64,000 nt of DNA, taken from NCBI GenBank assembly GCA_963809485.1, contig CAWEJX010000020.1, forward strand, positions 416,001 to 480,000, read 5' to 3'. Shown in pieces: positions 1 through 61,281 of this stretch. The notes under the pieces were generated by a model. It was not told the DNA's origin, did no database searches, and saw only the letters and a list, made by a program, of their open reading frames with translations. The position numbers were made by a program, and so were the translations under genes. The first letter of the stretch is position 1. Each line of letters begins with the position of its first letter. The stretch is from an uncultured Acidobacteriota bacterium (lineage in GTDB: Bacteria > Acidobacteriota > UBA6911).

Positions 1-510
1 CCCTATGAAGGAATTGCCGTTTTCAACCGTGTTGGAGTAACCGGAGTTAGCCCCGAAGAAAGAATTGTAGGATCCCGCAGTGCTGTAGAGGCCGGCGCTT
101 CTTCCAAAAAACGAGTTCGCGGAACCCGTACTGTTCGCCCTCCCTGTCAGCCGTCCAAAGAATGAGTTATCCAGGCCGTGAGTATTGGCCCCGCCCGCGG
201 TCTCTCCGAAGAATGCGTTGGAATGTCCATTTTTATTGTAATAGCCGGCGCCGGAACCGAAGAACGAATTCCATCGGCCGGCCGTGTTGGAATAACCGGA
301 GCCGGAACCGAAGAACGAGTTATAATCGCCCGCTGCGCTGGAGTAGCCCGCATCGGCCCCGAAGAAAGAATTATTGCTGCCCGATACTCCGGCCTCATAG
401 CCAAACGAAGTGATATCGCCGGTTTGAATCTCAGTTGCCTGCATCCAGCCTCCGCTGGAGACCAGGAAAAACATTGTAAGGGCCATAACTGATAGCCAGT
501 TGTATTTCAT
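1..510 (-). CDS. Secreted repeat protein, partial (runs off window start); 14-aa NSFFGxxAGxxNxxG repeats typical of YadA-head-like/TMF-family surface proteins
   Basis: Manual translation from ATG at 510: MKYNWLSVMALTMFFLVSSGGWMQATEIQTGDITSFGYEAGVSGSNNSFFGADAGYSSAAGDYNSFFGSGAGYSNTAGRWNSFFGSGAG..., open to position 1. Signal-peptide-like N-terminus, GAGGAG upstream. Missing from the ORF track because there is no stop inside the window. Confidence 0.8.
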   Translation of the reverse strand, partial: MKYNWLSVMALTMFFLVSSGGWMQATEIQTGDITSFGYEAGVSGSNNSFFGADAGYSSAAGDYNSFFGSGSGYSNTAGRWNSFFGSGAGYYNKNGHSNAFFGETAGGANTHGLDNSFFGRLTGRANSTGSANSFFGRSAGLYSTAGSYNSFFGANSGYSNTVENGNSFIG

Positions 511-739: not shown

Positions 740-1672
740 TCAGTGTTTTGCGCTCGGGTGAGGGACCGGACCGAGCGTCCTGGCCGCATTTTTCAACAGG
801 GCTCGGATCCAGATGTGCCCGGGATCCTGATCCTGATAGCGGTGCCATTGCAGGCAATGGGTGACTTTCGGAATGGCGAAAGGAGGGCGTATCAGCCTGA
901 GCGGCAGGTGTTGTGCGCAAATCCGCGCCATTCGGCTCATGACCGTGGCGATTCGGCTGGTCCCCACAACCAGGCGGCAGGCGACTTCAAAATCCTGCGT
1001 GACCACCTCGATTTTTCTAGTCTCCCCGTAGCGGGCGGCAAACCATTCCTCAAAAATAGCGGGAGCGTGGCCGAAATGGACCGCAATATGCCCGAGTTCG
1101 AGAAACCGGCTCCGGGAAATCGAGTTTCCAATTAAAGCGTTGTTGCGCCACACCACACAGGTGTGCGTATCCTCGAAGAGCGATTCCTTCGGATGTGCCG
1201 CCAGCGCGTGGACAGCAGGGCGGATGAGGAAATCGACGTCTCCCTTTTCAAGCTTCTGGTCGATATTCTCATCCAAACGCACCAGCTCGAACCGGACTCC
1301 GGGCGCCCGCTGCGCAGCCTCCTGCATCACGCCGGGCATCAATACAGCAGTCACATAGTCGGACACCGCCATACAGAACTTGCGGCTGGAGGCAGCGGGA
1401 TCGAACTCCGCTTTGGAAGCGACCGTGTGCTGGATCTGGACCAGGCAACTGCGCACAGGTTGCACCAGGCTTTCAGCCAATGGAGTCAAGACCATCCTGC
1501 GACCCGCCGGAACCATCAGTTCATTCCCGAAGTATTGCCGAAGGCGAGCGAGAATAATGCTGGTCGCCGGCTGGCTCAAATGGAGCCGTTCCCCGGCGCG
1601 CGTAACACTCTTTTCCGTCAGCAATGCATCCAGCGCAACAAGCAGGCCAGGATCGAATTTGCGAAAGTCCAT
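740..1672 (-). CDS. LysR-family transcriptional regulator, NodD/FdeR-like
   Basis: N-terminal HTH LLVALDALLTEKSVTRAGERLHLSQPA and LARLRQYFGNEL, C-terminal LQWHRYQDQDPGHIW, all resembling the NodD subfamily. Confidence 0.9.
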   Translation of the reverse strand: MDFRKFDPGLLVALDALLTEKSVTRAGERLHLSQPATSIILARLRQYFGNELMVPAGRRMVLTPLAESLVQPVRSCLVQIQHTVASKAEFDPAASSRKFCMAVSDYVTAVLMPGVMQEAAQRAPGVRFELVRLDENIDQKLEKGDVDFLIRPAVHALAAHPKESLFEDTHTCVVWRNNALIGNSISRSRFLELGHIAVHFGHAPAIFEEWFAARYGETRKIEVVTQDFEVACRLVVGTSRIATVMSRMARICAQHLPLRLIRPPFAIPKVTHCLQWHRYQDQDPGHIWIRALLKNAARTLGPVPHPSAKH

Positions 1673-1719
1673 GGCGCCCTCAGGTAGTCGAGCCCCGCGG
1701 GAAAGCGTGGGGTGACAAT

Positions 1720-1775
1720 GTATTTAAAAATCAAATCAGAATATATATTAAACATTCATTTTACAAATAATATCA
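1720..1775 (+). promoter_or_regulatory. AT-rich LysR operator region, nod-box-like
   Basis: AAACATTCATTTTACAAAT (1750-1768) resembles the 3' part of the nod-box consensus AAACAATCRATTTTACCAAT. Lies between the divergent lysR and the phlG-like operon. Confidence 0.5.
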
Positions 1776-1927
1776 ATGCCTGATATTTATGCCATCAGGG
1801 GCGGCAATTTATGTCTGTTTCCTGCCGCCTGAATCGGGAATTTTGGGTTTTGGCAATGGCGAAAATGCCGGCTGTCCAGGTGCATGGCTCTCATGGTAAC
1901 CCTCTGGATAAATCAGGAGCGTGTCTG

Positions 1928-2758
1928 ATGGCGACTCAGAAATCGGTGCCTCTCAAACCGGAAGAACAATCCAGAGCCTGCGCCAAATTTTACCGGGACC
2001 CTGTGCCGCCCGATCCCGCGCATCTGGCGATGATGGATACGCCATGCGATCCCTCAAAGGCTATTTATCCGGAACAGATGAATGAGCTTCTCAAACCGGG
2101 CGCCCTGCAGGTGGAAATCGGATGGTGCAACCTGCCGAACGGAGCGGGATTTATCGCCAACCGGAATATTTACGCAAACATAACCGCTGAGATGATCGAC
2201 TGGTGGTTTGCCTGGCATCCGCTTGAGGATCTGCGCTACCGCGTGTGGTATCCGCCTCAGCATGCCGGAATAGCGTTAAGCCCCGAATCCCGCAGCAGAA
2301 TTCTCGACCCGTCGATACCGGTTCGGGAGAAAAATTGGGGCGTTACCCACCATGTTACCGAGGACTGCGGTTGCGGAATGGAAAATATCGAAATCACATT
2401 CCTCTCGCCAAGGGATTTCGGCTTCGACATAACGCTTTGGAAGGAACCGTTTGTTTCGACTTTCGCAGGCGGTTTCGGCTGGTCCCGCAGGGCGGATGAT
2501 GCTGAACATGCCATCAAAACGCCATCGCTGATGTGCCACATTTTTCGGCAGGTTCCAGGCGGCCTCGAACATCGCACACGGTTCTGGATGGGTTACCGGG
2601 CGTCCCAGGGCAAGCCGGAGCTGGTCCTGCCCCCGGGCATCTCAGTTCCGGCGATTGCGGTTCAGGGGCTCGCAAGGCACAACGTGCTGGAATTCAGCAA
2701 CCTTGGAGCCCTTTTGCCGGAAATCCATGCAGAATTCGGCGGGCAGATGACCGCTTAG
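1928..2758 (+). CDS. DAPG hydrolase / phloretin hydrolase (PhlG family) C-C hydrolase
   Basis: Motifs EIGWCNLPNGAGF, TAEMIDWWFAWH, RYRVWYPPQH, THHVTED, RTRFWMG, HNVLEFSNL. RBS CAGGAG before ATG 1928. Confidence 0.85.
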   Translation: MATQKSVPLKPEEQSRACAKFYRDPVPPDPAHLAMMDTPCDPSKAIYPEQMNELLKPGALQVEIGWCNLPNGAGFIANRNIYANITAEMIDWWFAWHPLEDLRYRVWYPPQHAGIALSPESRSRILDPSIPVREKNWGVTHHVTEDCGCGMENIEITFLSPRDFGFDITLWKEPFVSTFAGGFGWSRRADDAEHAIKTPSLMCHIFRQVPGGLEHRTRFWMGYRASQGKPELVLPPGISVPAIAVQGLARHNVLEFSNLGALLPEIHAEFGGQMTA

Positions 2759-2792
2759 GTGTATACCGTGTTGAAATCAGTTCGGAGGGAGC

Positions 2793-3014
2793 ATGAGTGC
2801 CAACATTGAGATTGATTTGGATGAGTGTACCGGCTGCAAGACCTGCGTCGACGCCTGTTTTGTGGATGTGATGCGATGGGACGAGGAGCAGGAGAGGCCG
2901 ATCGTTGCGTATGAGCGGGATTGCGTTTGGTGTTTTACGTGCGAAATCAATTGCCCGGCCCAATGTATCAACATCATACCCCAAGTGCCCGGACAGACGG
3001 TCAACCCTTACTGA
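2793..3014 (+). CDS. 2x[4Fe-4S] ferredoxin, AprB-like
   Basis: CTGCKTCVDAC and CVWCFTCEINCP motifs, GGAGG RBS, directly upstream of the flavoprotein. Confidence 0.9.
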   Translation: MSANIEIDLDECTGCKTCVDACFVDVMRWDEEQERPIVAYERDCVWCFTCEINCPAQCINIIPQVPGQTVNPY

Positions 3015-3048
3015 ACGCTGGTGTCGCAGAACTTAAGAGGAGTCAAAC

Positions 3049-5298
3049 ATGGGCGAAAAGGCAAAGAACGCAACAATATATGATTCGGACGTGCTCATTA
3101 TCGGCGGCGGATTCGGCGGCCTTGCGGCGGCGATCAGAATCAAAGAGCTTTCGCCGGAAACTAGCGTGCTGCTCGTAGACAAGCAGACGATTGGATGGGG
3201 AGGAAAAGCGAATAAGGGGGCCGGAGTTTTATGGGTTCTTATGCCCGGCGACAATATCGACGCCTTCGTCGATTTTCATGTGAAGAACATCGGAATTTAC
3301 CTGAACGATCAGGATCTGCTGTACGCAATGGCGCGGGAATCCTTCGGGGCAGCTCAGAAACTGGCGGAATGGGGCGTTAAAGTAATGAAAACCCCGGAAG
3401 GGAATCTGGATGCCAGCCCTCTGCCTTTCGGCTGGTCGATGGCGGCAGCAGATCTGGACATGATGCAGCCGCTCAGGGCAAAGGCCTCGAAACTTGGAGT
3501 GAGACTGCTGGACAAAACCCAGGTGGTCGACCTGTTGAAACGGGACGATCGCGTTATCGGTGCGGTCGGCTTCAACCTTCTCGACGGCCGCTTCACTCTC
3601 TTGAACTCAAAAACCACCCTACTGGCGAATGGCGATTGTGATTTTGGAGTCATGCGCATGTGGGCCAATGCCTGCGGAGATGGCATCGCAGCTGCCTACA
3701 ATGCCGGAGCGGAGATGCGGAACGCGGAGTTCGGAAATTTCTACGATGTTGTCAACAAGGGTACGGGCATTCCCATTGTTTTCGGTTTCAACGCACTCTA
3801 TAACGCCCAAGGTGAGAATATAAGCTCCAAATACATTCAAGGCCCGCAGCCGGATATCCCGATTTCCATTATCTTGGGAATGGAGAAGGAGATCATGGAG
3901 GGAAGGGGGCCCATATATTTCGACATGGCTGAGTTCGCCAAAAGATCAGGCGGTGGGGGAATCTTTCAATGGGATAGGCCCCATTCCAAGGCGTTATTCG
4001 GGCGTGAATTTGCAAAAATGCAGAAGTATGGTCCGCCGCAGGCTGCCAGGACCGAGGTTTCTCTCGGGTTCACCGGCGAACTCTCGGCCGTCAAAGTCGA
4101 CCGTGACATGAAGACAACCCTTCCAGGCCTTTGGGCAATCGGCGATACGAGTTACGCGGGTTCCGCATGGGCCGGCGCGGCGGAGGCGCCTCCGGGAAGA
4201 TTGAGAGGCTCCGGATTGATGAATGCCCTGATCGCGGCTTTGATGGCTTCTCCATCTGTGGCCAGGCATGCGAAAGAGGCCCCGGCTTCCCTGCCTGATG
4301 AGCATGAGATAGAGCTTCTGAAAGAGAAATTATTTGCGCCTTTGAACCGGCGCCACGGCTACTCAGCTTCAGAAGCCATACGGAGCATCCAGGAAGTGGT
4401 TGTGCCTGTGAAATACAGCATGCGCCGGAACAAGGAGCGGCTGGAGGAAGCCTTGTCCAAGGTGGCGGCAGTCCAGGAAAAGCTGCCCGAGCTCTATGCA
4501 GAGGATCCGCACGGTCTGGCCAAATGCCATGAAGCTGCGTGCATTGCACTATGCGCCGAAATCGGATTTCGGGCAGCTCTGGCCCGCACTGAAAGCAGGG
4601 GTTGGCACTACAGGGAGGACTATCCTCAGCGGGATGACGAGAACTGGCTCAAGTGGATCATCGTCAAAAAAAGCCAGGATAAAATGGCTGTCACCACCGA
4701 GCCCATTCCTATGGAGCGCTATAAAATCAAGCCCACCCAGACGACGACCGTAACGGACGCTGTCGTGGATCACGACGAGCTTGTCGGCGTTACGCCCGAG
4801 ATGATCGACTGGTGGTGGGTCAATATGGAAAAGGGATATCCCTTGTGGGAGCCCAACGATCACAAATCATTCGTATGGGAAGTGCCGCCGCCCGTTGGCG
4901 GGTACCTTGGCGCCATCCAGATAGCGGAGGAAAAGATGGGGCCGATGCCGGCCATGAAGATCCGTATACGGTGGGACGATCCGGACACCTGTCCCGTTCC
5001 GGGCATTTACGAGCATGCAATCGTGGCAGCCGGGATCAATCCCGAGGGGAAGGTGCAGGCCATGATTCTCCACGAATGGGAGAAGAGCCCCCGCGGGACA
5101 AGGATGCGCTCCACCATGCATTTCCCCGGCCCCGTTCCTTCCGGCTTCGCCGAAATCTGGAAAGCGCACGACAGGGCGGAGGTATCCACGTTCCCAAATT
5201 TCCTGCCCGACCTTTATCGGTTGTGGCAGGCTGTAAAAGACCCGGCAATCAACAGGCAGTGCTCATTGAAGAGAAAGAAGTCCGCCGGACAAAGCTGA
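3049..5298 (+). CDS. FAD-dependent oxidoreductase (AprA/SdhA/NadB superfamily) fused to a C-terminal PhlG-like hydrolase domain
   Basis: GGGFGGLAAA FAD motif, PGLWAIGD, RTESRGWHYREDYP. After about aa 565: GVTPEMIDWWW...YPLWEPNDH...HDRAE, matching the PhlG fold. Confidence 0.85.
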   Translation: MGEKAKNATIYDSDVLIIGGGFGGLAAAIRIKELSPETSVLLVDKQTIGWGGKANKGAGVLWVLMPGDNIDAFVDFHVKNIGIYLNDQDLLYAMARESFGAAQKLAEWGVKVMKTPEGNLDASPLPFGWSMAAADLDMMQPLRAKASKLGVRLLDKTQVVDLLKRDDRVIGAVGFNLLDGRFTLLNSKTTLLANGDCDFGVMRMWANACGDGIAAAYNAGAEMRNAEFGNFYDVVNKGTGIPIVFGFNALYNAQGENISSKYIQGPQPDIPISIILGMEKEIMEGRGPIYFDMAEFAKRSGGGGIFQWDRPHSKALFGREFAKMQKYGPPQAARTEVSLGFTGELSAVKVDRDMKTTLPGLWAIGDTSYAGSAWAGAAEAPPGRLRGSGLMNALIAALMASPSVARHAKEAPASLPDEHEIELLKEKLFAPLNRRHGYSASEAIRSIQEVVVPVKYSMRRNKERLEEALSKVAAVQEKLPELYAEDPHGLAKCHEAACIALCAEIGFRAALARTESRGWHYREDYPQRDDENWLKWIIVKKSQDKMAVTTEPIPMERYKIKPTQTTTVTDAVVDHDELVGVTPEMIDWWWVNMEKGYPLWEPNDHKSFVWEVPPPVGGYLGAIQIAEEKMGPMPAMKIRIRWDDPDTCPVPGIYEHAIVAAGINPEGKVQAMILHEWEKSPRGTRMRSTMHFPGPVPSGFAEIWKAHDRAEVSTFPNFLPDLYRLWQAVKDPAINRQCSLKRKKSAGQS

Positions 5299-5662: not shown

Positions 5663-6922
5663 CTATCGCGACCGTGCCTGCGAACGGAAGAGCATCGGCG
5701 CCGTGTAATTCAAGTGATTACGCCAAACGCTGAAAACATGGCCGCCGGGGTAATCAGCCCATACGGCGTTGATGCCCTTGTCCTTGAACAGCTTCACCAA
5801 TCGTTTTCCGGGCGGCAGCATTGCTGTCTCCTGCCGGCCGGCGCCAAGGAAGAGAAGACGCAGGTTCTTCTTTGTTTGCTCCGGATTTGCCAGCAACTCC
5901 TTCCACGGAGACTGAGTTTCTATCTCGCCCGGCATTTGCGGCCCGATACCGCCGAATCCCCCGCTGTAGGCCAGAACATAATGAAACAATTCCGGGTGGG
6001 CAAGCCCGATCTGGATGCTTTGAAACGCGCCCATCGACAGGCCGCCAATGGCCCTGTGGTCCGGGTCGCTGTAAACGCGGAAGCCGCTCTCAATCATGGG
6101 AAGGATCTGCTCGAGCAGTTCCTTTGTGAAAAAGGTGAAGTTGAGCATGCCTGCCGGGCCCGGTTGCAGGACAGCCCTGAACGGCCCGACCGATGCACTC
6201 TGTATCGCATGCCCATGCGGCATCACGACGATCATCGGCACGGCCTTGCCCTCCGCGATGAGGTTATCGAGAATGATATTGGCTCGCCCGTTCATCACCC
6301 AGCCGGATTGGGTTTCACCGTTTCCATGCAGGAGGTAATAGACGGGATACTTCTTGTTTGTCCTGTCGTAGTCCGGCGGCGTATACACCCAAAGATAGCG
6401 ATGGACGTCCATCGCCTTAGACTCGTAGAGAATCATGCGGACCTGCCCATGCGGCACCGGACGCGCATCATAGAACGCCGGCGCATCCCCCGGAACTTCC
6501 ACGAAGCTCGAGACGGCTGCGGGCCCCGCCGAGCGATGCATGAGGCTGATGTTGGCGGGATCGGGAAACTCGACGCCTTCTGCGCGAAAGTTGTATATCC
6601 AGATCTCCGGCGGCAGCGGCCCGATCGTGACGCTCCAGACGCCTTCGTCATCTTTCGTCATCGGCTGGGAAGGTTTTCCCTGCAAAACCTCGCCAACAAG
6701 TTCGACTGCCGTTGCTTTGGGAGCGCGCAGCCGGAATGTCACGGTCCGGTCGGGATGAACTTCGGGAGACCGCAGCGTTGGAGGGAGCGGTGCTCTGGGT
6801 GCCTCGGCGGTAGCGGATTGGGAGGGATTCCCGGTTTTCGGGCCTGGCGCCGTCTGAGCAACCAGTAGGGATACAGACAGAATCACCATCAGGGCCAGTG
6901 CAAAAGCGGCTCTAATCCCCAT
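5663..6922 (-). CDS. Secreted esterase (CE1 / enterochelin esterase-like) with N-terminal Ig-like/CBM48-like domain
   Basis: Signal peptide; SPEVHPDRTVTFRLRAPKA; YPVYYLLHG; nucleophile GLSMG; C-terminal GGH. Confidence 0.88.
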   Translation of the reverse strand: MGIRAAFALALMVILSVSLLVAQTAPGPKTGNPSQSATAEAPRAPLPPTLRSPEVHPDRTVTFRLRAPKATAVELVGEVLQGKPSQPMTKDDEGVWSVTIGPLPPEIWIYNFRAEGVEFPDPANISLMHRSAGPAAVSSFVEVPGDAPAFYDARPVPHGQVRMILYESKAMDVHRYLWVYTPPDYDRTNKKYPVYYLLHGNGETQSGWVMNGRANIILDNLIAEGKAVPMIVVMPHGHAIQSASVGPFRAVLQPGPAGMLNFTFFTKELLEQILPMIESGFRVYSDPDHRAIGGLSMGAFQSIQIGLAHPELFHYVLAYSGGFGGIGPQMPGEIETQSPWKELLANPEQTKKNLRLLFLGAGRQETAMLPPGKRLVKLFKDKGINAVWADYPGGHVFSVWRNHLNYTAPMLFRSQARSR

Positions 6923-7195
6923 ATTCGCAGTCCTCCTTCACGAGTCGGTAGAAGCAAATTCTGATTTTGCTTGCCCCGGCGTCGTCAACGCGCAGCATCG
7001 TTTTCCAGTCACGCAAGCAAAGCAGCAACCCATTGTCCGCACACACGGGACACAGTACTTGTGAAGCCGGCTCAACCGGCCTATGGTCCATCCTCTTCCT
7101 GCGGATTTCCCATTGCGGATCCGAGCATAGCATGCAATGCGCTTCCTTGAGAAAAGCCATCAACCGCGAAGTCTCCGGCTTTTCCGGAAGGATGC

Positions 7196-8545
7196 CTATT
7201 TCCGAAATCTGCTCAGATCGAAAGCGTCCGCCATTGCCTGATTGCCCGCGTCATTGGGGTGGATATGGTCGCCGGGATCGAATTCAGGCCGCAGGCGAAC
7301 GGGCCGGGACGGATCCCGGAGGACGGCATCAAAGTCCACGACTGCATCGAAAAGGCCGCTTGTGCGGATCCACTGATTCACGGCCTGCCTTATCTGTTCG
7401 CCACGCTCGGACCATGTCGGGACGCCTTCCTGGGGCGTAACCGTCGCCCCAATCACCCGGATTCCATGGGTATGCGCTCGTTCGATGATCTGTCGATATC
7501 CCGCGATAAGATCCTCGCCCGTAAGCGCGTCGGGACCCTCCGACCGTCCACGTATATTGATGTCATTAATGCCTTCCAGCAGGATAAGCCATTTCACCCC
7601 GGCAATGCTCAGCACATCGCGATCAAAACGCGCAAGCGCACTCAGTCCGGCTCCGTCCCGCAGCACCTGGTTTCCCGATATGCCCAGATTGACAACCGAA
7701 ACGTGTTGAGTTCTTTTGCTGGAATGCAAACGCCGCGCTAGGAGAGCCGGCCATGCGCGGTCCGTATCCAGTGTGGTCGCATATCCGTCGGTGATGGAAT
7801 CCCCCAATGCCACAATTGCGAATGCATCGGCCGGCGCCAGTACATCGATACTGGCCAGCCAAAGATAAGCAAATGTGGTGGCGGGCTCGGGCATGATTTC
7901 CTGTCCGGCAACATTGCCCTTGGACAGGTAGGTGGTATGAAGTCCCAGCCTGTGATTCGTCGGCGCGCCTGTGTCGTGCGGCAGGTATAACGAAACGGCA
8001 AGATCCGTCAGCGGAGCTATCTCCAAATCTATCGGATCGCTGACCGCTAAAACACCCGGGAGCAGTACGCATGAAGGCTTTCCGTTAAATGTAATGGCCC
8101 GGTCTGTTCCGGGAACGATCGCGCCGCCGGCTTTGTGAACCGCGATGTGCGCAGAACCGACCTGTACCAACGGCTTCCCCTGCGAGTTGCTGAGATTCAC
8201 GCGAACCCGCCGGCCGCCCAGGCTCGTGCGGACAATCATCCGCACGGTCTGATCCTGCAGGTTCGAAGGCATATCGAACATGATCGGAGAGCTGTCGCGG
8301 CTCCCGGATTGGCGCACGGTCGCGGACTGCTGCGGAGTTTCCTGTTTTCGGGATGAATCCGGTGATATTGGGGGACCATTCCGATCGGGCCCATCGGGAA
8401 ACCTCACAGGAACCAGTTCCTGAGCTGTCGCCCATGTACAAATCCATCGTTCGCTACTTTTCTGGGTATTGCGGGAATACGAAGTTGCCATCAATGGCAC
8501 AAGGAGCATGGCAACAGCAAGGAGGGGTGTGCGTTTTCGCATCAT
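7196..8545 (-). CDS. Secreted SGNH/GDSL hydrolase
   Basis: GDSITDG, GISGN, EGINDI and DHIHP blocks; signal peptide from MMRKRTP. Confidence 0.88.
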   Translation of the reverse strand: MMRKRTPLLAVAMLLVPLMATSYSRNTQKSSERWICTWATAQELVPVRFPDGPDRNGPPISPDSSRKQETPQQSATVRQSGSRDSSPIMFDMPSNLQDQTVRMIVRTSLGGRRVRVNLSNSQGKPLVQVGSAHIAVHKAGGAIVPGTDRAITFNGKPSCVLLPGVLAVSDPIDLEIAPLTDLAVSLYLPHDTGAPTNHRLGLHTTYLSKGNVAGQEIMPEPATTFAYLWLASIDVLAPADAFAIVALGDSITDGYATTLDTDRAWPALLARRLHSSKRTQHVSVVNLGISGNQVLRDGAGLSALARFDRDVLSIAGVKWLILLEGINDINIRGRSEGPDALTGEDLIAGYRQIIERAHTHGIRVIGATVTPQEGVPTWSERGEQIRQAVNQWIRTSGLFDAVVDFDAVLRDPSRPVRLRPEFDPGDHIHPNDAGNQAMADAFDLSRFRK

Positions 8546-8668
8546 ATGGGATCGAGCCTTTGCCCGGGAACTCGTCAGTGTCGGAGACGGCGGACGGGGA
8601 ATTTTTAGGCCGATGCATGGCGGATTCCTGACCCGCCATGCATCCTCCCGCAATTAAACTAGAATAAA

Positions 8669-11600
8669 CTAGAAATCAAGCGCCATATTCATCTGTATCT
8701 TTCGGGAGCCTTGAGTGGTCGTAATCTGCCCGAAAGTCGGAATGCCAACCATCGTTGACGGGTTTCCCCAGCGCACGATATTGAATGGATTGACAAAATC
8801 AGCGCCCAAACGGAAATTGACCCGTTCTGTGATGGCAATGGCTTTTGAAATCGAGAAAGATTCGGATTTCATCCAGGGTCCCCGGGCCCAGTCCAGATAT
8901 CGGGCAGTATTGCCAAACGAGAATAGGGCAGGGCTCGTAAATGCTTCCGGATTCAAATAGACGTCCGAGTACGGATTCCAGGTGCTGAAATCCGTCTTGG
9001 CATAAACCGGCTTCCCATTGTAATTGGCGTACACCATCGGAATGAAGGAGGAGTATCCGAGCGTACCCGCAAAGGGGTTGATCCCCCAGACTTGCAGCGC
9101 GGCACCCGACTGGTAACGCAGGAACCCGGTGATAGTCCAACCCCCCACCAAGCCGTCGACCAGCCTGGAAGCGGATCCCAGGAAGTGCCTGTTCTTTCCG
9201 AACGGCAGATCGTAGGAGAAATTCAGGCCGAAAATCGCGGCCGGCACCCCGGGATCGATCGCGGTTGGGTTGGACCCGGGGTATTGGCGCGAGCCTTCGG
9301 CGAAATTGGCATAGGTGGTGCTTCCTCCCGAGGAATTGGTGAGGCCCTTCGCCCATGTGAAAAAGCCCAAGGCAGACAAGCCTTTCGAAAAGCGCTTTGT
9401 CGCCTTCAACTGAAGCGAATGGTAGCTCCCCTTGCCGATGGGCAGCAGTGCAACGTCGCCCTGCACAAACGTGTACTGGGGATAAGGCTTCAGCGACTGT
9501 GCAACGGTATTGGCACCCTGCTGTTCGGCAAATCCCGGATAGGGCTCTTTGAATCCCGAAGCCTGTGCCCAGGGCGAATTGATCGGCTGAATGAGCAGAA
9601 AGCCAAGGCCCAGTTTGTCTTCAGGCACGTAATTGAATTGAGAAACGCCGCTGCCGACCGTGAGGTGCGTCGATCGGCTTCCCAGATAGCTCGCCTCTAA
9701 AGAAAAGTTTGGCAGCAGTTCATGTTGAACAACGAGGCTCCAGTTTACGACCTGCGGCAGCCTGGCAGCATCACGGGGGATATAGCTGATTGCCTGGCCG
9801 TTCAGAAATGTGGGATCAATAAGCGGCGGTTTCTTGAAGTTCTGAGGGAAGGGCTCCTCATTCCAGTAAAAGATGGGAGTGAAGCCGTCCGCAGAACTGA
9901 AAGTTGGCGTACCACTGTACCCGAGAGCGCCCGTAGTCAGGAACGGCTGAACGTTTCCGCTGTTGGAGAAGACGATTCCGGCAGATGCGCGGACAATCGT
10001 TTTCGGATTCAGCTGGTATGCAATTCCAAGGCGGGGCCCAAATCCCTTGCGCCAGGGATCCTGGAACTGGCCGCCGATTTTTCCGGTTCCTGTTCCGGCA
10101 TAGGCGAGCGCGCCGGGAAGGTTCCCCGCACCCGCGTTGGGGATGTCGGGTTGAAAGCTCGTCATGTAATCGTTCACCTCATACATGGGCGAGTTGTAGT
10201 CCCACCGCAGACCGTAGGAAACGGTCAGGTTCTTGGTGGCGCGCCATTCATCCTGAGCAAATATCGCGTATTGCCGGAATCGCAGCTGGGTCGCGAGAGA
10301 AATGTAGGCGCTTGCCTGGTTGACTGCGCCGAGCAGGAAAGAAGCAAAAGCGCTCCCGGCATTCTGATCCGCAGTTGTGGCCGTTGAAGAATTCGAGAAT
10401 GTGAAGGATCCGGACTGTCCTCCGAAATGGCGGTCCTCATTGTTCAGCTGAACGGAAAAGCCAAACTTCATGGTATGTTTGCCGCGGATCCAGGAAAGGT
10501 TTTCGTTAAAGCCGAAACGATGTTCCAGCCAGTCTTCGTCATAGGATCGTGCCAAAGGCGGCAGGCGCACCGACTCCACCCGAAAAGCTGATGGAGGGAA
10601 AAGAACCATCGTCGGCCGGAATGCCTTGAATTCCCAAGTTTCTGATCCCAGCCCTGTCCCACAGTCTTGTTGGCTCCGCGGTTATAATAATTATCCGCTG
10701 AGAACGTAAAATGGTTCACCACCGTATTGGTGATGATGTAATCGTGATTCAGGCGCACCTTCCAGCTGTTTGCCAATTGGTCCGTAACCAATGATCGATG
10801 GGGTTGGTTTGCGTTTCCCCCCATACAGGCTGAGGAATACGCCCGACTTCCCAGATAATCCGGTGATTGATTCGTTTGCTGTACATCACCGACAGTTTTT
10901 GTTTGTCGGAAAGGCTGTGGTCTACCTTTATCAGAGGGGAGTACACATTGAGGTAGGGCCATTTGTCATTCGCCCTGGACAGGAAGTTATTTGTTACCCC
11001 CGGCATGTCAGGCGGCGGAAGGTATTCCATAATCTTTTTGGCGGCATCGCTGATGCGCTCGGACGGGATTATGTTGTCTTTAAACGGATCCCGGACGATG
11101 GCTCCCCCTTCACCAATACGTGTGGTTTCCGGATCATATATGGTCACTCCGAGTTCGCTGAAATCCCCAGCCCTCTCTTTGAGCGACGGGATGGTCACCA
11201 GATCTCCCGCTGGCTCCCATCCTGGAATAGAAGAGCCCCAGGCTGCCAAAGAAGAAGGTTTTATCCCTTCCGTTATATACTTTGGGAATTACCACAGGTC
11301 CGCCAAGGGTGAATCCCCCTTCGTTTTGACTAAAGGGCGTCACATCCTTTGCGAAAAATTCCTTTGCGTTCAGCGCGCTGTTCCCAAGGTGGTCGAAGAT
11401 GCTCCCGTGAAGCTGATTGGTGCCCGATTTAATGGTGACATTGGTAAACCAGTTGCCGAATCCTCCGTATTCGGCATTAAATCCGTTTGCCACGACACTG
11501 AATTCACCGACCTGCTCGATGAGAGGGGATATCTCCGAATAACCGCCACGGGCGATGCCCCACTCGCTTGCCGGCCCTCCATCGAGAAAGACCTCCGTAT

Positions 11601-27352: not shown

Positions 27353-29542
27353 ATGCAAGCCTATTCTCGAAGGAAATTCCTGAAAATCTCAGGCGCCGTC
27401 GTAGGCGGTGCAGCCGTTACCGCAACTAAAAGGGTGCTGGCCGGCAAGGAGATCATCTCCGGATCCGGCATCCAGATGATTCCTACTTTCTGTGATATCT
27501 GTTTCTGGAAGTGCGGCGCTATCGCCTATGTCAAAGATGGAGAGCTGTGGAAGGTAGAGGGTAATCCGCTGGATCCTCTCAGCCGGGGACGGCTGTGCCC
27601 GAGAGGCACAGGAGGCATTGGCGCCCATTTCGATCCTGACCGTTTACGGGCTCCTCTCATGCGCAGGCGCAAGCGCGGTGACGAAGAGTGGACTGCAGTT
27701 ACATGGGACGAAGCCCTCAACTCCGTTGCGGAGAAGATGCAGAAGATAAAGGCTGAATATGGGCCGGAAGCCCTTGCTCTTTTCTCCCATGGCATCGGCG
27801 GGACTTTTCTCAGACACGCATTGAAGGCCTATGGCGTGATAAACATCGCCGCCCCATCCTTTGCACAGTGCAGAGGACCGCGAGATGTCGGATTCAAGCT
27901 TACCTTTGGAGAAGACGTAAGCTCGCCGGAAAGAACCGATATCCGTAACGCAGACTGCCTTGTGCTCATCGGGTCTCACCTGGGCGAGAACATGCACAAC
28001 ACGCAGGTGCAGGAATTTGCAGAAGCGGTCGGCAGGGGCGCCAGCATCATTGTTGCAGATCCCCGATTCTCTGTAGCCGCGGGGAAAGCGAAGTTTTATC
28101 TCCCGATACGGCCGGGGACCGATCTTGCTCTCCTGCTGGCATGGATGCAAGTACTGGTGGCCGAAAACCTTTACGACAAAGAATATGTCGCGAAGCATGG
28201 CTTTGGCTTCGAGCAGTTTGCCGCATCCGTTGCATCGTGCACACCCGAATGGGCTTATCCGGAAACAGGCATTGAGCCGGAATTGATCCGCTCAACCGCA
28301 CGGGAGATGGCCCGGTGCAAACCTGCCACGCTGGTGCATCCGGGCCGCCATGTCACATGGTACGGGGATGATGCTCAACGCAGCCGCGCCATAGCTCTGT
28401 TGAACGCCTTGCTGGGCAGTTGGGGGCGCAAAGGCGGATTTTATTACCCGGTCAGCATGGACGTTCCCGGTTACGCCTATCCGGAATATCCGAAAGCGCA
28501 AAAGGACAAGGCCGATAATCCCGGGGGGAAATATCCTTTCGCCGACGAGTCAATCACCACCGGAATCCGCGAAGCGACCCGGTCTGGAAAACCCTATACA
28601 ATCAAGGGATGGTTCGTCTACGCAACAAACCTTATGGAGGCGCTGCCGAATGCGCAGGAAACCATACAGGCGATGCAGAACCTGGACCTGATGGTGGTCG
28701 TGGATGTGATCCCCAGTGAAATTGCCGGCTGGGCCGACGTGGTTTTGCCGGAATCCGTTTATCTCGAACGGCACGATGATCTGAATGTCGAATGGTTTCG
28801 CGAACCTTTTGTCGCTCTGCGCCAGCCTGTGGTCCATTCTCCTCATGATCAGAAACCCAACTGGTGGATCGCGCGAACGCTGGCGAACAAGCTGGGACTC
28901 GGGAACTATTTCCCTTGGAAAGACATCGAGGAATATCTCGATCACAGGCTTTCAGCCGCAGGACTGAGCTTCGATGAGCTGAAGAAGAAAGGCATCATCC
29001 GCGGCGCTAAGCAACCCGTTTATTTTGACGAGGGCGTTCCGGACCACTTTTCCACCCCATCAGGGAAAATCGAGTTCTATTCCCTGCAGCTCGAGAAGGC
29101 TGGTATGGCTCCGGTACCGCAATACAAGCGTCCCGCGGATGGCCCGTCAGGGTATCTCCGGTTGCTTTACGGCCGCGCCCCTGTTCACTCTTTCAGCCGG
29201 ACTCAGTCCAATCCGATTCTGTCGGATGCAATGAGCGAAAATGCAGTTTGGGTACACCCGCAAGTCGCCAGGAGGCATGGAATTCAAAACGGAGTTCGCG
29301 TTCGTTTGAAAAACCAGGATGGCGTCCTCAGCAATCGTGTGCTCGTAAGAGTCACGGAGTGTATCCGGCCCGATTGCGTTTACCTGGTCCATGGATTTGG
29401 GCACACGGCCAAGGGCCTCAGGCATGCTTTCGGCAAAGGGGCGAGCGACGCCCAGTTGATCACCCGATACGCGACGGATCCTCTGATGGGAGGGACCGGA
29501 ATGAATGTCAATTTCGTAACCTTCGAGATCGAGGAGGTGTAA
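27353..29542 (+). CDS. psrA: Molybdopterin oxidoreductase catalytic subunit, polysulfide/thiosulfate reductase (PsrA/PhsA-like)
   Basis: Tat SRRKFLK; CDICFWKC...LCPRG Fe-S motif; FAQCRGP (likely Mo-ligand Cys); TPSGKIEFYS; VHGFGH. Confidence 0.85.
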   Translation: MQAYSRRKFLKISGAVVGGAAVTATKRVLAGKEIISGSGIQMIPTFCDICFWKCGAIAYVKDGELWKVEGNPLDPLSRGRLCPRGTGGIGAHFDPDRLRAPLMRRRKRGDEEWTAVTWDEALNSVAEKMQKIKAEYGPEALALFSHGIGGTFLRHALKAYGVINIAAPSFAQCRGPRDVGFKLTFGEDVSSPERTDIRNADCLVLIGSHLGENMHNTQVQEFAEAVGRGASIIVADPRFSVAAGKAKFYLPIRPGTDLALLLAWMQVLVAENLYDKEYVAKHGFGFEQFAASVASCTPEWAYPETGIEPELIRSTAREMARCKPATLVHPGRHVTWYGDDAQRSRAIALLNALLGSWGRKGGFYYPVSMDVPGYAYPEYPKAQKDKADNPGGKYPFADESITTGIREATRSGKPYTIKGWFVYATNLMEALPNAQETIQAMQNLDLMVVVDVIPSEIAGWADVVLPESVYLERHDDLNVEWFREPFVALRQPVVHSPHDQKPNWWIARTLANKLGLGNYFPWKDIEEYLDHRLSAAGLSFDELKKKGIIRGAKQPVYFDEGVPDHFSTPSGKIEFYSLQLEKAGMAPVPQYKRPADGPSGYLRLLYGRAPVHSFSRTQSNPILSDAMSENAVWVHPQVARRHGIQNGVRVRLKNQDGVLSNRVLVRVTECIRPDCVYLVHGFGHTAKGLRHAFGKGASDAQLITRYATDPLMGGTGMNVNFVTFEIEEV

Positions 29543-29544
29543 CC

Positions 29545-30084
29545 GTGGCCCGCTACGCCATGGTGATTGACACAAAAATATGTGTCGGCTGTATGGATTG
29601 CGTCGTGGCCTGCAAAGCCGAGAACCAGGTTCCCCGAGGTTTCGATCGCGACTGGATTGCCTATGACACAAAAGGAATCTACCCCACGCTGCGAATGGAG
29701 ATCCGCAGCGAGCGCTGCAATCATTGCGACAATCCGCCCTGCGTGTACTGCTGCCCGTGCGGAGCCAGCCATGTCCACGAGCGTGGCGGTGTTGTGCTTG
29801 TCTATCATGAGAAATGCGTGGGATGCAAAGCCTGCATGGCCGCGTGCCCCTACGATGCGCGCTTTGTGCATCCGGAGGGCTATGTGGATAAATGCACCTT
29901 CTGCATCCATCGCGTCGAAAAAGGAATGGACCCGGCCTGTGTTTCCGTATGCCCGACCCATTGCATGTATTTCGGGGATCTGGAGGATGCGAACAGCGAG
30001 GTCAGCCGATTACTCAACGAACGGCCCGGCCACCGGCTGCTGGATTCGGCGGGAACAAAGCCACAGATCTGGTACCTGGATTAG
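29545..30084 (+). CDS. psrB: 4Fe-4S dicluster subunit (PsrB/NrfC-like)
   Basis: CVGCMDCVVAC, CNHCDNPPC, CVGCKACMAACPY, CTFC...PACVSVCPT; GAGGAGG before GTG. Confidence 0.88.
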   Translation: MARYAMVIDTKICVGCMDCVVACKAENQVPRGFDRDWIAYDTKGIYPTLRMEIRSERCNHCDNPPCVYCCPCGASHVHERGGVVLVYHEKCVGCKACMAACPYDARFVHPEGYVDKCTFCIHRVEKGMDPACVSVCPTHCMYFGDLEDANSEVSRLLNERPGHRLLDSAGTKPQIWYLD

Positions 30085-30090
30085 GAGTCT

Positions 30091-30482
30091 AGTCAGGTAC
30101 CTCCGGCAGAGCCGGAGGAATGAAAGATTTGAACCGCTCAAAGCGGTTGGAGGAGTTACGCCGGTCTTGAACGCTGACTTACGCGGGCAAAAGCCGATGA
30201 GGCGCTTCCGATCCCCGCAGGGGCCAGCGCTCCGCGCTGGCCAGTTTTCTGCGGCGGCACTGTGGCAAGCGCCGTGCCGCAAGGAGATGAAGGGTATGAG
30301 AAACCGGGCGTTTGCCACAGTGCCGCCGCAGAAAACTCCATCGGAAGCGCCTCATCGGCTTTTGCTCGCCGACCCTCGCCGAACAAATCGGTGTTTGTCA
30401 GCGCTTTTGTCAGCGTTTCAAAATACGGAGCTGTCAAACTCTTTGAGTCCCCCGGCAGAGCCGGGGGGTTACCAAGGTAATT
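30091..30482. mobile_element. Non-autonomous IS200/IS605-type element (PATE/MITE-like) copy 1, with nested hairpin insert
   Basis: Subterminal hairpins CCTCCGGCAGAGCCGGAGG and CCCCCGGCAGAGCCGGGGG; related copies at 33386 and 45689; no transposase. Confidence 0.78.
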
Positions 30483-30505
30483 ACCAAATCCCGGAGTAAC
30501 GCCCT

Positions 30506-31465
30506 GTGAACCCGATACGCGAACTCATCACAACCCGGCACAATGAATTGGTGGATCCTCTGCTGAAAGTCTGGGGGGTAGAGATCGCGATTTATCTCTT
30601 CCTCGGCGGCATGGTGGCCGGAATGATGGTTATCCTCGGCTATTTCCTTTTCAAGGGACGCCACAAGGAGCTTCGTTGCTCCTGTGCGCTTCTGCCCGGA
30701 TTGTGCATCGTTCTGCTGAGCGTCGGGATGCTGGCCTTGTTTTTGGATCTGGAGCACCGGTGGTATTTCTGGCGGATGTATCTCACCTTCAAACCGGCTT
30801 CTCCAATGTCCTGGGGGGCATGGATTCTGATGCTCGTTTACCCTGCCCTCCTGGCCGCAGCGTTTTTGCGCCTGCCGGATCTCATCAAAGATCTATTTCC
30901 GTCCTTGGGACGTGCCGTCGAAAAATCCCTGGCCAACGCGGCTTTTGTCAGGACCGTTGGGATTTCGAATATGGTTCTGGGTGCCATGTTGGGCATCTAT
31001 ACGGGGATTCTATTAAGCGCTCTGGGCGCTCGGCCGCTTTGGAACAGCTCCCTTCTGGGGCCGCTTTTTCTTGTCTCCGGGCTTTCTACCGCAGCGGCCT
31101 TTGTGCACCTGATTGCGCGGGACCCCTATGAACGCGTTTTGCTTGCCAAAGCCGACAATGGATTCCTGTCCATCGAGCTTTTCGTGATCTTCCTTTTTGC
31201 AATTGGCCTGCTCAGTTCGACGGATGTACACATCAACGCCGCCATGTTGATTCTCACCGGCCGTTTTGCGCCCCTCTTTCTGGTTCTCGTTGTGGGATTG
31301 GGAATTGTAGTCCCTCTGATCATTCAGTCTCTCGCGGTAAGTCATCGCATCAGGCACACACCCATAGCCCCTGTCATGGTGATTGCCGGCGGCTTTATCC
31401 TTCGCCTCGTCATTGTTTATGCGGGTCAGGCGAGTCACTGGAACGTAATCTCGGCACTGAAATAA
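30506..31465 (+). CDS. psrC: NrfD/PsrC polysulfide reductase membrane anchor
   Basis: WGVEIAIYLFLGG, LFLDL, SPMSWGAW, YTGILL, RPLWNS, LRLVIVYAGQ. Confidence 0.88.
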   Translation: MNPIRELITTRHNELVDPLLKVWGVEIAIYLFLGGMVAGMMVILGYFLFKGRHKELRCSCALLPGLCIVLLSVGMLALFLDLEHRWYFWRMYLTFKPASPMSWGAWILMLVYPALLAAAFLRLPDLIKDLFPSLGRAVEKSLANAAFVRTVGISNMVLGAMLGIYTGILLSALGARPLWNSSLLGPLFLVSGLSTAAAFVHLIARDPYERVLLAKADNGFLSIELFVIFLFAIGLLSSTDVHINAAMLILTGRFAPLFLVLVVGLGIVVPLIIQSLAVSHRIRHTPIAPVMVIAGGFILRLVIVYAGQASHWNVISALK

Positions 31466-31469
31466 GGAG

Positions 31470-32057
31470 ATGTCGATGAGCGAAGAAACCAATTCATCCG
31501 TGATCGGGAATTCCGGCACATTGGGAACAAGCAAAACTGCACCCGGTCCCAAGCCCTATTCCAACCCCTATGCCGCCGGTTTCGGATTGGGTCTGGTGCT
31601 CCTTGCTGCGTTTGTAATCGCGGGGCGCGGTCTGGGCGCTTCGGGCGCTTTCAGCTCACTGGTTGCCGCGGCCGCACATGCCATAGCCCCGCAACATACC
31701 GCTGCAAATGGGTTTTACGCGGAATATCTCGGCGACGGGACCGGGAGTCCCCTGATGGACTGGCTGGTTTTTGAGGTTCTGGGGATTTTTGCCGGCGGGC
31801 TGATATCGGGAGCACTGGCGGGCAGAATTGTGAAATCGATAGAGCGCGGGCCATCCATCACCAACAAAAGGCGCCTGATTTTCGCCTTCATCGGCGGATC
31901 TCTCATGGGGATCGGAGCCAAACTGGCGCGCGGCTGCACCAGCGGTCAGGCGCTGACGGGCGGGGCGTTGCTTGGGGTTGGCAGTTGGGCGTTTATGCTG
32001 TGCGTGTTCGCAGGCGCCTATGCCACGGCGTGGTTTGTAAGGAGGCAATGGAAATGA
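31470..32057 (+). CDS. YeeE/YedE sulfur (thiosulfate) transporter family protein, half 1
   Basis: GLGASG and GAKLARGCTSGQAL motifs; multiple TM helices. Confidence 0.87.
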   Translation: MSMSEETNSSVIGNSGTLGTSKTAPGPKPYSNPYAAGFGLGLVLLAAFVIAGRGLGASGAFSSLVAAAAHAIAPQHTAANGFYAEYLGDGTGSPLMDWLVFEVLGIFAGGLISGALAGRIVKSIERGPSITNKRRLIFAFIGGSLMGIGAKLARGCTSGQALTGGALLGVGSWAFMLCVFAGAYATAWFVRRQWK

Positions 32058-32659
32058 GCGCACCTTTCTACAAATTCGGATTATTCGGCGACAACATCAG
32101 CCTGGTGATCGCCTTCCTTATCGGGATCGGATTTGGCTTTTTCCTGGAGCGGGCGGGTTTCGGCAGCGCACGCAAACTGACGGCGCAGTTTTACCTGACG
32201 GACATGGCGGTATTTAAGGTGATGTTTACGGCTATTGTTACGGCCATGTTTGGAGTTTTCTATCTTGGCTGGATCGGATTTCTGGATATTTCACTCATCT
32301 ATTTGACGCCCACCTATCTGCTTCCACAGATTGCGGGCGGCCTGATCCTTGGGATCGGCTTCGCGATCGGCGGCTATTGTCCCGGGACTGCGTGTGTTGC
32401 CGTATCTACTGCCAAAATCGACGCGGCCGTTTACGTCGCTGGAGTCATCTTCGGAATCTTTGTTTTCGGCGAGGCTTTCCCGATCTTAAAGGGGTTTTAC
32501 AATGCGACGCCGATGGGACAGATTACTCTGGCCCAGCTCCTGAAGATGCCTTATGGACTCATTGTGCTATTCGTCGCGCTTATGGCCGTTGGAGGGTTTG
32601 CAGGAGCGACCTGGGTGGAGAAAATGATGGCGGCGCGGAAAGGAGTGCGGCTACCATGA
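32054..32659 (+). CDS. YeeE/YedE family protein, half 2
   Basis: GFFLERAGF, VFKVMFTAI, GFAIGGYCPGT; ATGA overlap with the previous gene. Confidence 0.87.
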   Translation: MSAPFYKFGLFGDNISLVIAFLIGIGFGFFLERAGFGSARKLTAQFYLTDMAVFKVMFTAIVTAMFGVFYLGWIGFLDISLIYLTPTYLLPQIAGGLILGIGFAIGGYCPGTACVAVSTAKIDAAVYVAGVIFGIFVFGEAFPILKGFYNATPMGQITLAQLLKMPYGLIVLFVALMAVGGFAGATWVEKMMAARKGVRLP

Positions 32660-61111: not shown

Positions 61112-61129
61112 AACATTAGATTCCTCATC

Positions 61130-61265
61130 GCAGTATTTCAGGGAAGAGAAGGCTCCGGTGGAGTTGTCCGCCCATCCCACATAGTGAATGATTTTGCCCC
61201 CATACCTTTTAGAGCGGACAGATCGGGATCGATGGCGTCGCACATGGCCGATATTTTTGCCGCAA
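61130..61265 (-). pseudogene. Tannase/feruloyl esterase internal fragment
   Basis: DAIDPDLSALK / GGKIIHYVGWAD with one frame change matches the tannase PDLS..GGKLI.YHGW.D motif. Confidence 0.6.
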
Positions 61266-61281
61266 CGAGTTTGGCGACCTC

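Follow-up and report, generated by a model that had tools for sequence, protein, structure and literature searches.

Eubacterium ramulus and Flavonifractor plautii release phloroglucinol from flavonoids in two steps, in which reduction (Fcr/EnoR) is followed by hydrolysis of the flavonoid-derived acylphloroglucinol by Phy. Here we describe a locus from an uncultured soil or wetland bacterium of the Acidobacteriota for which we propose, from its genes, a similar succession of steps. The locus lies at positions 740–5298 of a 64,000-nucleotide stretch of DNA (the window; assembly GCA_963809485.1, contig CAWEJX010000020.1, positions 416,001 to 480,000) and consists of a LysR-family regulator gene and a divergent operon of three genes for a homologue of the 2,4-diacetylphloroglucinol (DAPG) hydrolase PhlG, a 2x[4Fe-4S] ferredoxin and an AprA/SdhA-type flavoprotein that carries a second PhlG-like domain. 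We lean towards the view that the products of this LysR-controlled operon make up a composite system that depends on ferredoxin, acts in the anaerobic catabolism of polyphenols and ends in free phloroglucinol. It is likely that the module supplies phloroglucinol derived from a polyphenol; that the substrate it reduces is specifically a chalcone or flavanone is a tentative suggestion. The proposed product would enter the same phloroglucinol pathway as that of the Fcr/Phy system.

The two systems differ in their reductases. The known enzyme, Fcr, is an NADH-dependent reductase of the Old Yellow Enzyme (OYE) type (PMC10470551, PMC8084988), whereas the one proposed here is a flavoprotein of the AprA/SdhA type that has a ferredoxin of its own and is often fused to the hydrolase domain. 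The module hydrolase belongs to the same Pfam family as Phy, including the Mycobacterium abscessus enzyme (Protein Data Bank (PDB) entries 5xe5 and 5xey), and as the Pseudomonas DAPG hydrolase PhlG (3hwp), with the same four metal-ligand positions in each case; unlike PhlG, it stands in a catabolic, anaerobic context rather than in a phl antibiotic cluster, and the second copy in the operon lacks the N-terminal part. The 3'-phosphoadenosine 5'-phosphosulfate (PAPS) reductase of Methanothermococcus thermolithotrophicus (8a8o) and the adenosine 5'-phosphosulfate (APS) reductase AprAB (1jnr, 2fja) pair a flavin adenine dinucleotide (FAD) subunit of the same fold with a small 2x[4Fe-4S] subunit encoded next to it. 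The module departs from AprAB in its shorter ferredoxin (73 residues against a 132-position AprB profile), its extra PhlG-like domain and the lack of a sulfur-metabolism context. The regulator resembles NodD, the flavonoid-sensing LysR regulator of rhizobia, in that its gene diverges from the operon that it presumably controls and a conserved T-N11-A box lies at the -35 region; unlike NodD targets, the window promoter lacks the ATC-N9-GAT nod-box motif. In full-text literature searches we found no description of the PhlG-like/ferredoxin/AprA-like flavoprotein unit; a preliminary description of this DNA, made from its sequence alone, had named no described pathway in which an AprAB-like pair performs such a step. 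In the available text of PMC10470551, DAPG_hydrolase occurs only as a neighbour label in the legend of Figure 8; elsewhere in the searches it was met only as a domain label.

Two PhlG-like units in one operon

The three plus-strand genes face away from the LysR gene, and each follows a strong Shine–Dalgarno sequence (GGAGGGAG at the ferredoxin gene), with intergenic gaps of 34 nt. The first encodes a full-length homologue of the Zn-dependent C–C hydrolases of the PhlG/phloretin hydrolase family (open reading frame (ORF) 1811..2758, 315 residues), the second the 73-residue ferredoxin (2793..3014) and the third the 749-residue flavoprotein (3049–5298). The latter comprises a core of the AprA/SdhA/NadB superfamily (residues 1–565, 3049..4743; FAD_binding_2 and Succ_DH_flav_C) and a shortened, or mini, PhlG-like domain at its C-terminus (residues ~567–749, 4747..5298; PF18089 and profile–profile comparison). 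All four genes, the LysR gene included, were found where the preliminary description had placed them, and Pfam and PDB matches bear out the families it gave. Two of its details on these genes need amendment: it overlooked the C-terminal domain of a flavoprotein whose family it had right, and it began the correctly located hydrolase gene at 1811, where a start at ATG 1928 is likelier. The closest homologues of the flavoprotein carry Acidobacteriota labels.

The protein encoded at 1811–2758 matches PF18089 (DAPG_hydrolase) with an E-value of 1.5e-68 (231 bits; gathering cut-off 22.7), and its PDB matches are phloretin hydrolase 5xe5 (E 1.4e-33, 119.6 bits) and PhlG 3hwp (E 9.6e-30). It scores 100.3 bits against the PhlG equivalog model NF047887 (cut-off 600) and is therefore not PhlG proper. 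A ribosome-binding site, AGGAG, at 1915–1919 and the lengths of homologues (276–283 residues) favour the start at 1928, and the true product is thus probably 276 residues long. In the HMMER alignment, H151, E184, H290 and E294 of the hydrolase match H137, E168, H278 and E282 of the tagged 3hwp chain, which we take to be the PhlG zinc ligands His129, Glu160, His270 and Glu274, the numbers differing by an 8-residue tag. Among 53 full-length relatives in a joint alignment, the four columns keep the expected residue in 49, 50, 49 and 52 sequences.

The mini domain covers only positions 35–166 of PF18089 (E 6.9e-6, 26.2 bits against the cut-off of 22.7) and has no counterpart of the N-terminal part of PhlG. 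When a profile of 15 mini sequences was compared with one of 30 full-length PhlG-like sequences in hhalign, the two matched with 97.9% probability (E 4e-13). Judged by these comparisons, the C-terminus of the flavoprotein is a shortened PhlG-like domain. Its ligand-equivalent positions are H605, E628, H707 and E711, and the corresponding columns keep the expected residue in 37, 36, 38 and 38 of 38 mini sequences in the joint alignment. Because the four ligand positions are retained, both PhlG-like units of the operon look metal-competent.

A free-standing paralogue of the mini domain, 219 residues long, is encoded on another contig of the same genome (C8:418778-419437, minus strand). It is 48% identical to flavoprotein residues 571–748 and matches PF18089 over positions 35–222 (54.8 bits); its gene adjoins an MFS transporter and a TonB-dependent receptor, ~5 kb beyond the phloroglucinol gene cluster described below. 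A distantly related FAD_binding_2 protein (25% identity) is encoded 1 kb from this gene, with no ferredoxin in between. On a third contig, a short fragment with two internal stop codons (C7:183851-184021, minus strand) is 75% identical to flavoprotein residues 689–745 and looks like the remnant of another mini-PhlG or of a flavoprotein 3' end.

A ferredoxin and a distinct flavoprotein

The ferredoxin, identified by Fer4 family matches, contains two CxxCxxCxxxC motifs (Cys 12/15/18/22 and Cys 44/47/50/54) and is presumed to be the electron-input subunit. Its score against the aprB model TIGR02060 is 22.5 bits, with a cut-off of 135.65. The best PDB match of the flavoprotein by sequence is 8a8o_A (E 6.1e-31), followed by mycobacterial SdhA, AprA and Escherichia coli SdhA. 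An AlphaFold model built from a 67-row alignment (predicted local distance difference test, pLDDT, 81; predicted template modelling score, pTM, 0.74) gives a ranking by fold of 8a8o, then 1jnr/2fja, then FrdA. Identity is 24% to 8a8o and 23% to the AprA structures. The AprAB-like pair of the preliminary description is a fair term for this architecture, the best solved relatives being the 8a8o alpha subunit and AprA.

At the level of function-specific families, all NCBIfam matches of the flavoprotein fall far under their cut-offs: 92.3 bits against the aprA model TIGR02061 (cut-off 641.75), 143.3 against NF005331 (cut-off 557) and 192 against NF006131 (cut-off 587), the best of the SdhA/FrdA models. 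Aligned to E. coli SdhA (1nek), the flavoprotein keeps a single SdhA motif, the C-terminal ESRGxH..DYP..DD.NW, and none of its histidines falls at the covalent-FAD site. By these comparisons it is a branch of its own within the superfamily, with a chemistry that is not readable from homology. Among 50%-identity representatives, at least 473 clusters match the flavoprotein at E ≤1e-30, and 2311 do so at E ≤1e-10. The neighbour families read at the window and at related loci include no sat, qmo or dsr genes.

The arrangement is conserved across phyla

Related loci were found through the flavoprotein: a 17-sequence profile, applied to one genome per species, yielded 157 relatives, of which 78 distinct loci were kept. 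Their ORFs were called mechanically and compared with the window proteins by phmmer (E ≤1e-3). A ferredoxin homologue is encoded in 70 of the 78 loci, directly upstream of the flavoprotein gene, and a PhlG-like domain in 64. The preliminary description had named the lack of PhlG/flavoprotein co-occurrence in other genomes as grounds against its reading. The loci bear that reading out, for the co-occurrence is strongly conserved and extends to gene fusions: a flavoprotein ORF was called in 60 of the 64, and for 57 of them the PhlG-like domain is part of the same protein or lies within 500 bp. Seven of the 14 loci that lack a PhlG-like domain are contigs ending at or near the gene. Because the hydrolase–ferredoxin–flavoprotein layout recurs in so many related loci, the arrangement is far from chance. 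Module loci come from at least eight phyla, including Acidobacteriota, Chloroflexota, Thermodesulfobacteriota, Actinomycetota, Bacillota, Myxococcota, Spirochaetota and Bathyarchaeota.

The forms of the PhlG-like partner can be followed on a quick maximum-likelihood tree built from 69 flavoprotein cores, with support from the Shimodaira–Hasegawa-like approximate likelihood ratio test (SH-aLRT) only. Flavoproteins with the fused mini domain, the window protein among them, form a clade of 24 rows (SH-aLRT 100), and for 21 of the 24 the locus additionally contains a separate gene for a full-length PhlG-like protein. In the sister group (Dehalococcoidia, Actinomycetota, Desulfobacterota) the mini form is a separate gene directly upstream; other clades (Holophagaceae, Korobacteraceae, Clostridia) have the full-length form only. 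In four Bacillota loci (Oscillospiraceae, Lachnospiraceae and unclassified Eubacteriales) a full-length PhlG-like domain is fused to the flavoprotein. The existence of two independent types of fusion argues that hydrolase domain and reductase work as one unit, and the second PhlG-like domain fused to the window flavoprotein suggests one composite enzyme rather than two free enzymes acting in sequence.

The ferredoxin–flavoprotein pair also occurs without a PhlG-like partner beside other hydrolases (Amidohydro_2, DUF6282, CocE/NonD S15), namely in L037, L054 and L039 and on contig C8 of the window's genome (L084:4101-5855), which suggests that the reductase module is combined with different hydrolases.

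Module operons run into the phloroglucinol pathway

To read the surroundings of the module, neighbouring ORFs of the 78 loci were clustered by BLAST and scanned against Pfam. Apart from transporters and regulators, the recurrent neighbours are an SDR, a 'cyclase', a protein of the 3-hydroxyacyl-coenzyme A (CoA) dehydrogenase type (3HCDH) and a BKACE protein. According to PMC10470551, phloroglucinol reductase, dihydrophloroglucinol cyclohydrolase, 3-hydroxy-5-oxohexanoate dehydrogenase and triacetate acetoacetate-lyase (PGR, DPGC, TfD and TAL) belong to these families. In one locus, L081, genes for the PhlG-like protein, ferredoxin, flavoprotein, SDR, 3HCDH, cyclase, BKACE and an MFS transporter follow each other on one strand and include the complete anaerobic phloroglucinol pathway. 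A Sporobacter termitidis metagenome-assembled genome (MAG; L073) has the same order minus BKACE, that is, the pathway without its lyase, and subsets are found in L066, L064, L056, L042, L029 and L068. The acidobacterial locus L007, with a flavoprotein that shares 84% identity with that of the window, has a BKACE gene 3.5 kb upstream. Altogether, at least one of the four pathway BLAST clusters is represented in 13 of the 78 loci. The window's own genome has genes for BKACE, CoA-transferase A/B, SDR, cyclase, 3HCDH and IclR clustered on contig C8. The link to phloroglucinol drawn in the preliminary description is borne out both by the operons that run straight into pathway genes and by the presence of the same pathway in this genome. 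Genes for URO-D-type methyltransferases, which are typical of O-demethylase systems, lie near the module in seven loci.

A Holophaga orthologue of the hydrolase is detected as protein in tannin-amended soil

One of the loci, L053, belongs to the Holophagaceae MAG CTSoil_007. The phloretin hydrolase ('PHY', day10_bin2_scaffold_700_0002) that the supplements of PMC8084988 list for the Holophaga MAG CTSoil_7 is the exact translation of L053:9723-10556; according to the supplement, it is 33–34% identical to reference Phy. PHY is represented there by 5 peptides, non-zero in the condensed-tannin (CT) samples of day 14 B and day 20 B. The neighbour _0003, annotated as 'FAD-binding protein' of Holophaga foetida, has 7 peptides, and the gene on the other side of PHY, _0001, has 2, both in CT days 10, 14 and 20 B. 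In this metaproteome of an anoxic soil the three proteins are zero in every unamended sample and were detected only in the tannin-amended replicate B (PMC8084988). We take _0003 to be the flavoprotein orthologue on account of gene order and annotation. This neighbour appears to be undiscussed in the paper, since the main text of PMC8084988 contains neither 'flavoprotein' nor 'fumarate reductase'.

A conserved small ORF of 117–127 residues with no Pfam match lies directly downstream of the module in several Acidobacteriota (L053:10582-10935, plus strand; L007, L019, L025 and L052, the last being the locus of Holophaga foetida DSM 6591). By gene order, the one in L053 is probably scaffold_700_0001.

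A NodD-like regulator and a conserved operator

The regulator (740..1672, minus strand, 310 residues) matches the Pfam families HTH_1 (E 1.7e-12) and LysR_substrate (E 1.2e-12). Its best NCBIfam matches are BsrA, LeuO, LelA and YidZ, all under cut-off. A tblastn comparison with plasmid sequences gave 1316 records, the best at 42–46% identity; the top matches (44–46%) are unnamed LysR genes of Burkholderia, Paraburkholderia and Azospirillum. Over its full length of 310 residues the regulator is 42% identical (E 9e-84) to a LysR protein on plasmid pRtrCIAT899b of Rhizobium tropici CIAT 899, whose gene is divergent from nodA-nodB-nodC-nodS-nodU and which is NodD by position, although its annotation is generic. 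The four NCBIfam models that the R. tropici protein matches, and their order, are those of the window protein. These similarities sustain the earlier assignment of a NodD-type LysR and support placing the window regulator, as a NodD-like protein, in the NodD/LeuO/BsrA subgroup. In 14 listed acidobacterial loci a gene for a close relative (phmmer E ≤2e-162) lies upstream of the module in divergent orientation, and two more have broken copies; the LysR protein beside the clostridial module L064 belongs to a different subgroup, AlsR/CidR.

Alignment of the intergenic regions of 13 acidobacterial loci revealed a conserved block of ~70 bp (1720..1790). At its core is a LysR-type box, ATTCATTTTACAAAT, at 1754–1768, which contains invariant columns and has the form T-N11-A within ATT-N9-AAT. 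The box overlaps a promoter-like -35 element, TTTACA (1760–1765), and a -10 element, GATATT, follows at 1782–1787. The operator/promoter call rests on conservation, because matches in a consensus promoter scan occur in this region at chance frequency (4 found, 3.4 expected). The core of the nod box is a repeated ATC-N9-GAT, and a motif scan found no ATC-N9-GAT between 595 and 3960; of the nod-box-like site in the preliminary description, the conserved LysR-type box therefore stands, while a classical nod box is rejected. Regulator and operator form a candidate polyphenol-responsive pair.

Genes around the operon

The ORF at 1–510 (minus strand) was considered as a further member of the system and rejected, since it is the end of a 497-residue secreted repeat protein. 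This predicted secreted protein, whose gene shares the strand of the LysR gene, lies downstream of it and continues to contig C20:415017, has many short NSFFG-type repeats, a coiled C-terminal part and no Pfam match. The downstream neighbour of the operon is a convergent esterase gene (5663–6922), and esterase genes of the plant-polymer type flank the operon at 5663–10609 and 60113–63366 (both minus strand). An esterase with a CBM48-like N-terminus matches a xylanase/feruloyl-esterase model, and other flanking genes encode a GDSL lipase/acylhydrolase, a TonB-dependent-type outer-membrane barrel, a BD-FAE esterase and a CocE/NonD (S15) hydrolase.

Further away, genes for a molybdopterin oxidoreductase and an NrfD-type membrane subunit, followed by one for a rhodanese-domain protein (27353–33309, plus strand), have a layout like that of polysulfide/thiosulfate reductases. 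A protein of the little-known UGSC family (PF24696) is encoded at 52168–53844 (minus strand); the family is also found a few kb from the ferredoxin–flavoprotein module in a Dehalococcoidaceae locus (L042:13133-14872) and a Desulfobacterales locus (L046:11764-15296).

Proposed function

In the mechanism that we propose, the LysR regulator would control the three-gene operon, and the 2x[4Fe-4S] protein would hand low-potential electrons to the non-covalent FAD of the flavoprotein. The flavoprotein would then carry out the two-electron reduction of a plant polyphenol that has, on a ring of the phloroglucinol type, an acyl side chain that is unsaturated or heterocyclic, such as a chalcone, flavanone, flavanonol or auronol. 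A PhlG-like zinc site, in the fused domain, in the separate full-length protein or in both, would cut the aryl–acyl C–C bond by retro-Claisen hydrolysis, and the phloroglucinol would pass to the reductase/cyclohydrolase/dehydrogenase/lyase pathway of contig C8. Probably the module represents an undescribed step in the oxygen-free decay of plant polyphenols, and a chalcone- or flavanone-type reduction ahead of hydrolysis is plausible. Complex formation among the parts is inferred, and so are the direction in which electrons flow, the compound reduced and the molecule that induces the LysR protein.

A bolder version, which is conceivable but rather doubtful, holds that the three parts, as subunits or fused, are a single metallo-flavoenzyme that couples ferredoxin-driven reduction to C–C hydrolysis in a shared or channelled active site, and that this is the missing enzyme for a step of flavonoid or tannin decay. 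One candidate for that step is the conversion of the auronol alphitonin to phloroglucinol and a phenyl acid; the other is that a single enzyme turns flavanones or flavanonols into phloroglucinol, with no need for an isomerase, an enoate reductase and a hydrolase as separate enzymes. PMC12203004 states that the enzymes for two conversions, catechin to taxifolin and alphitonin to phloroglucinol plus 3,4-dihydroxyphenylacetate, are unknown. Candidate roles for the module are therefore catechin-to-taxifolin conversion, alphitonin cleavage or an alternative to the OYE-type flavanone-cleaving reductase.

Several observations weigh against a composite, phloroglucinol-releasing system. The sequence features do not fix the substrate. 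In the 1nek alignment, the position of the SdhA motif FHPTG reads FYDVV in the flavoprotein and the CRGEGG arginine loop is missing, and Asn74 of AprA is not conserved. As the catalytic residues of SdhA/FrdA are unmatched (those of E. coli SdhA, including the covalent-FAD residue, are presumably His45, His242, Arg286 and His354), an enoate-reductase-like mechanism is not inferable by homology. Since the 78 loci were chosen via the flavoprotein, the count of 64 gives the frequency of a PhlG-like partner among flavoproteins, not that of a flavoprotein partner among PhlG-like genes. Seven loci with ample flanks (L029, L036, L037, L039, L046, L054 and L077) lack such a partner and have other neighbours (Amidohydro_2, DUF6282, a CocE/NonD hydrolase, an OYE reductase, AMP (adenosine monophosphate) ligases) or none. 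A search of 200 further genomes, drawn evenly from the phylum of the window, gave no PF18089 match, so that the module is patchy. OYE-type reductases of the Fcr kind are encoded beside the module in four loci (L015, L046, L068 and L075), and the window's genome has five OYE-type frames of 673–730 residues elsewhere; the known type of reductase may therefore perform the chalcone step and the flavoprotein another. Finally, the metaproteome signal is confounded, because Holophaga bloomed only in the amended replicate in which the proteins were detected (PMC8084988).

The foremost alternative inverts the order of events: the hydrolase would act first, and the flavoprotein would then reduce the product other than phloroglucinol, such as a cinnamate-type enoate or a 2-oxo acid derived from the B-ring side chain, as an electron sink. 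The superfamily includes the fumarate-, urocanate- and acrylate-type reductases, soluble enoate-type enzymes among them, and operons of the L081/L073 type would need no extra reductase if the hydrolase already cut the substrate. The flavoprotein also keeps the ESRGxH(Y)RxDYP motif common to SdhA and FrdA, the arginine of which, we assume, binds the substrate carboxylate. E-[ST]-R is, however, also found in AprA and PAPS reductase, and the motif is therefore no indicator of a carboxylate substrate; the other SdhA residues presumed to bind the carboxylate or donate the proton are not conserved. Two independent fusions of PhlG-like domain and reductase fit coupled action on one substrate better than reduction of an acid already set free, and we regard hydrolysis ahead of reduction as unlikely.

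A second possibility concerns the substrate, which might be no flavonoid at all. It could be another acylphloroglucinol, of the microbial DAPG/monoacetylphloroglucinol (MAPG) type or from plants or algae; or a 1,3-dihydroxylated ring could be reduced and the cyclic 1,3-dione opened by the PhlG-like site, as in a resorcinol-type route. The PhlG family includes DAPG hydrolase, retro-Claisen chemistry would also suit cyclic beta-diketones, and a ferredoxin-dependent resorcinol reductase is mentioned in PMC10470551. The URO-D-type genes near seven modules point to methoxylated aromatics in general. Simple acylphloroglucinols, on the other hand, make a reductase unnecessary, and the operons with a complete pathway already own a ring reductase and a ring-opening cyclohydrolase. 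The resorcinol reductase purified from Clostridium KN245 reportedly has ~50-kDa subunits and no Fe-S cluster, properties that do not fit the module. On these grounds a non-flavonoid substrate is improbable.

Still more improbable is an oxidative flavoprotein, which would dehydrogenate or hydroxylate a flavan-3-ol at the benzylic C4 (catechin to taxifolin) and pass electrons to the ferredoxin-like subunit, with the PhlG-like parts acting later on the ketone. AprAB-type enzymes run in both directions in nature. The catechin-to-taxifolin step is among those that PMC12203004 gives as lacking an enzyme, and the soil in which the proteins of the Holophaga orthologues were detected had been given condensed tannin, which is a polymer of flavan-3-ols (PMC8084988). 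Against such a role, no acceptor module is encoded beside the flavoprotein in the loci read, and benzylic oxidation would be unlikely to reduce low-potential clusters. The known enzymes of such chemistry, moreover, belong to another flavoprotein family. A variant of APS or PAPS reductase, to which the PAPS reductase alpha subunit 8a8o and then AprA as best solved relatives and a 2x[4Fe-4S] partner might point, is rejected as extremely improbable, because the family scores lie far under the cut-offs (92 against 642 bits for AprA, 22.5 against 136 bits for AprB), identity to 8a8o is 24% and the constant partners are PhlG-like domains and phloroglucinol genes, with no sat, qmo or dsr among the neighbours read.

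Implications

How flavonoids and tannins are broken down without oxygen matters for the carbon stored in peat and wetlands (the 'enzyme latch' debate), for the emission of methane and for the metabolism of polyphenols in the rumen and the gut. Maps of these pathways still contain steps with unknown enzymes (PMC12203004), and the module is a conserved, uncharacterised enzyme unit. Its three genes are a concrete target, and the LysR/operator pair is a candidate sensor. If the parts do act as a composite enzyme, the module would be a widespread route by which anaerobes of wetlands, sediments, rumen and gut mobilise polyphenol carbon.

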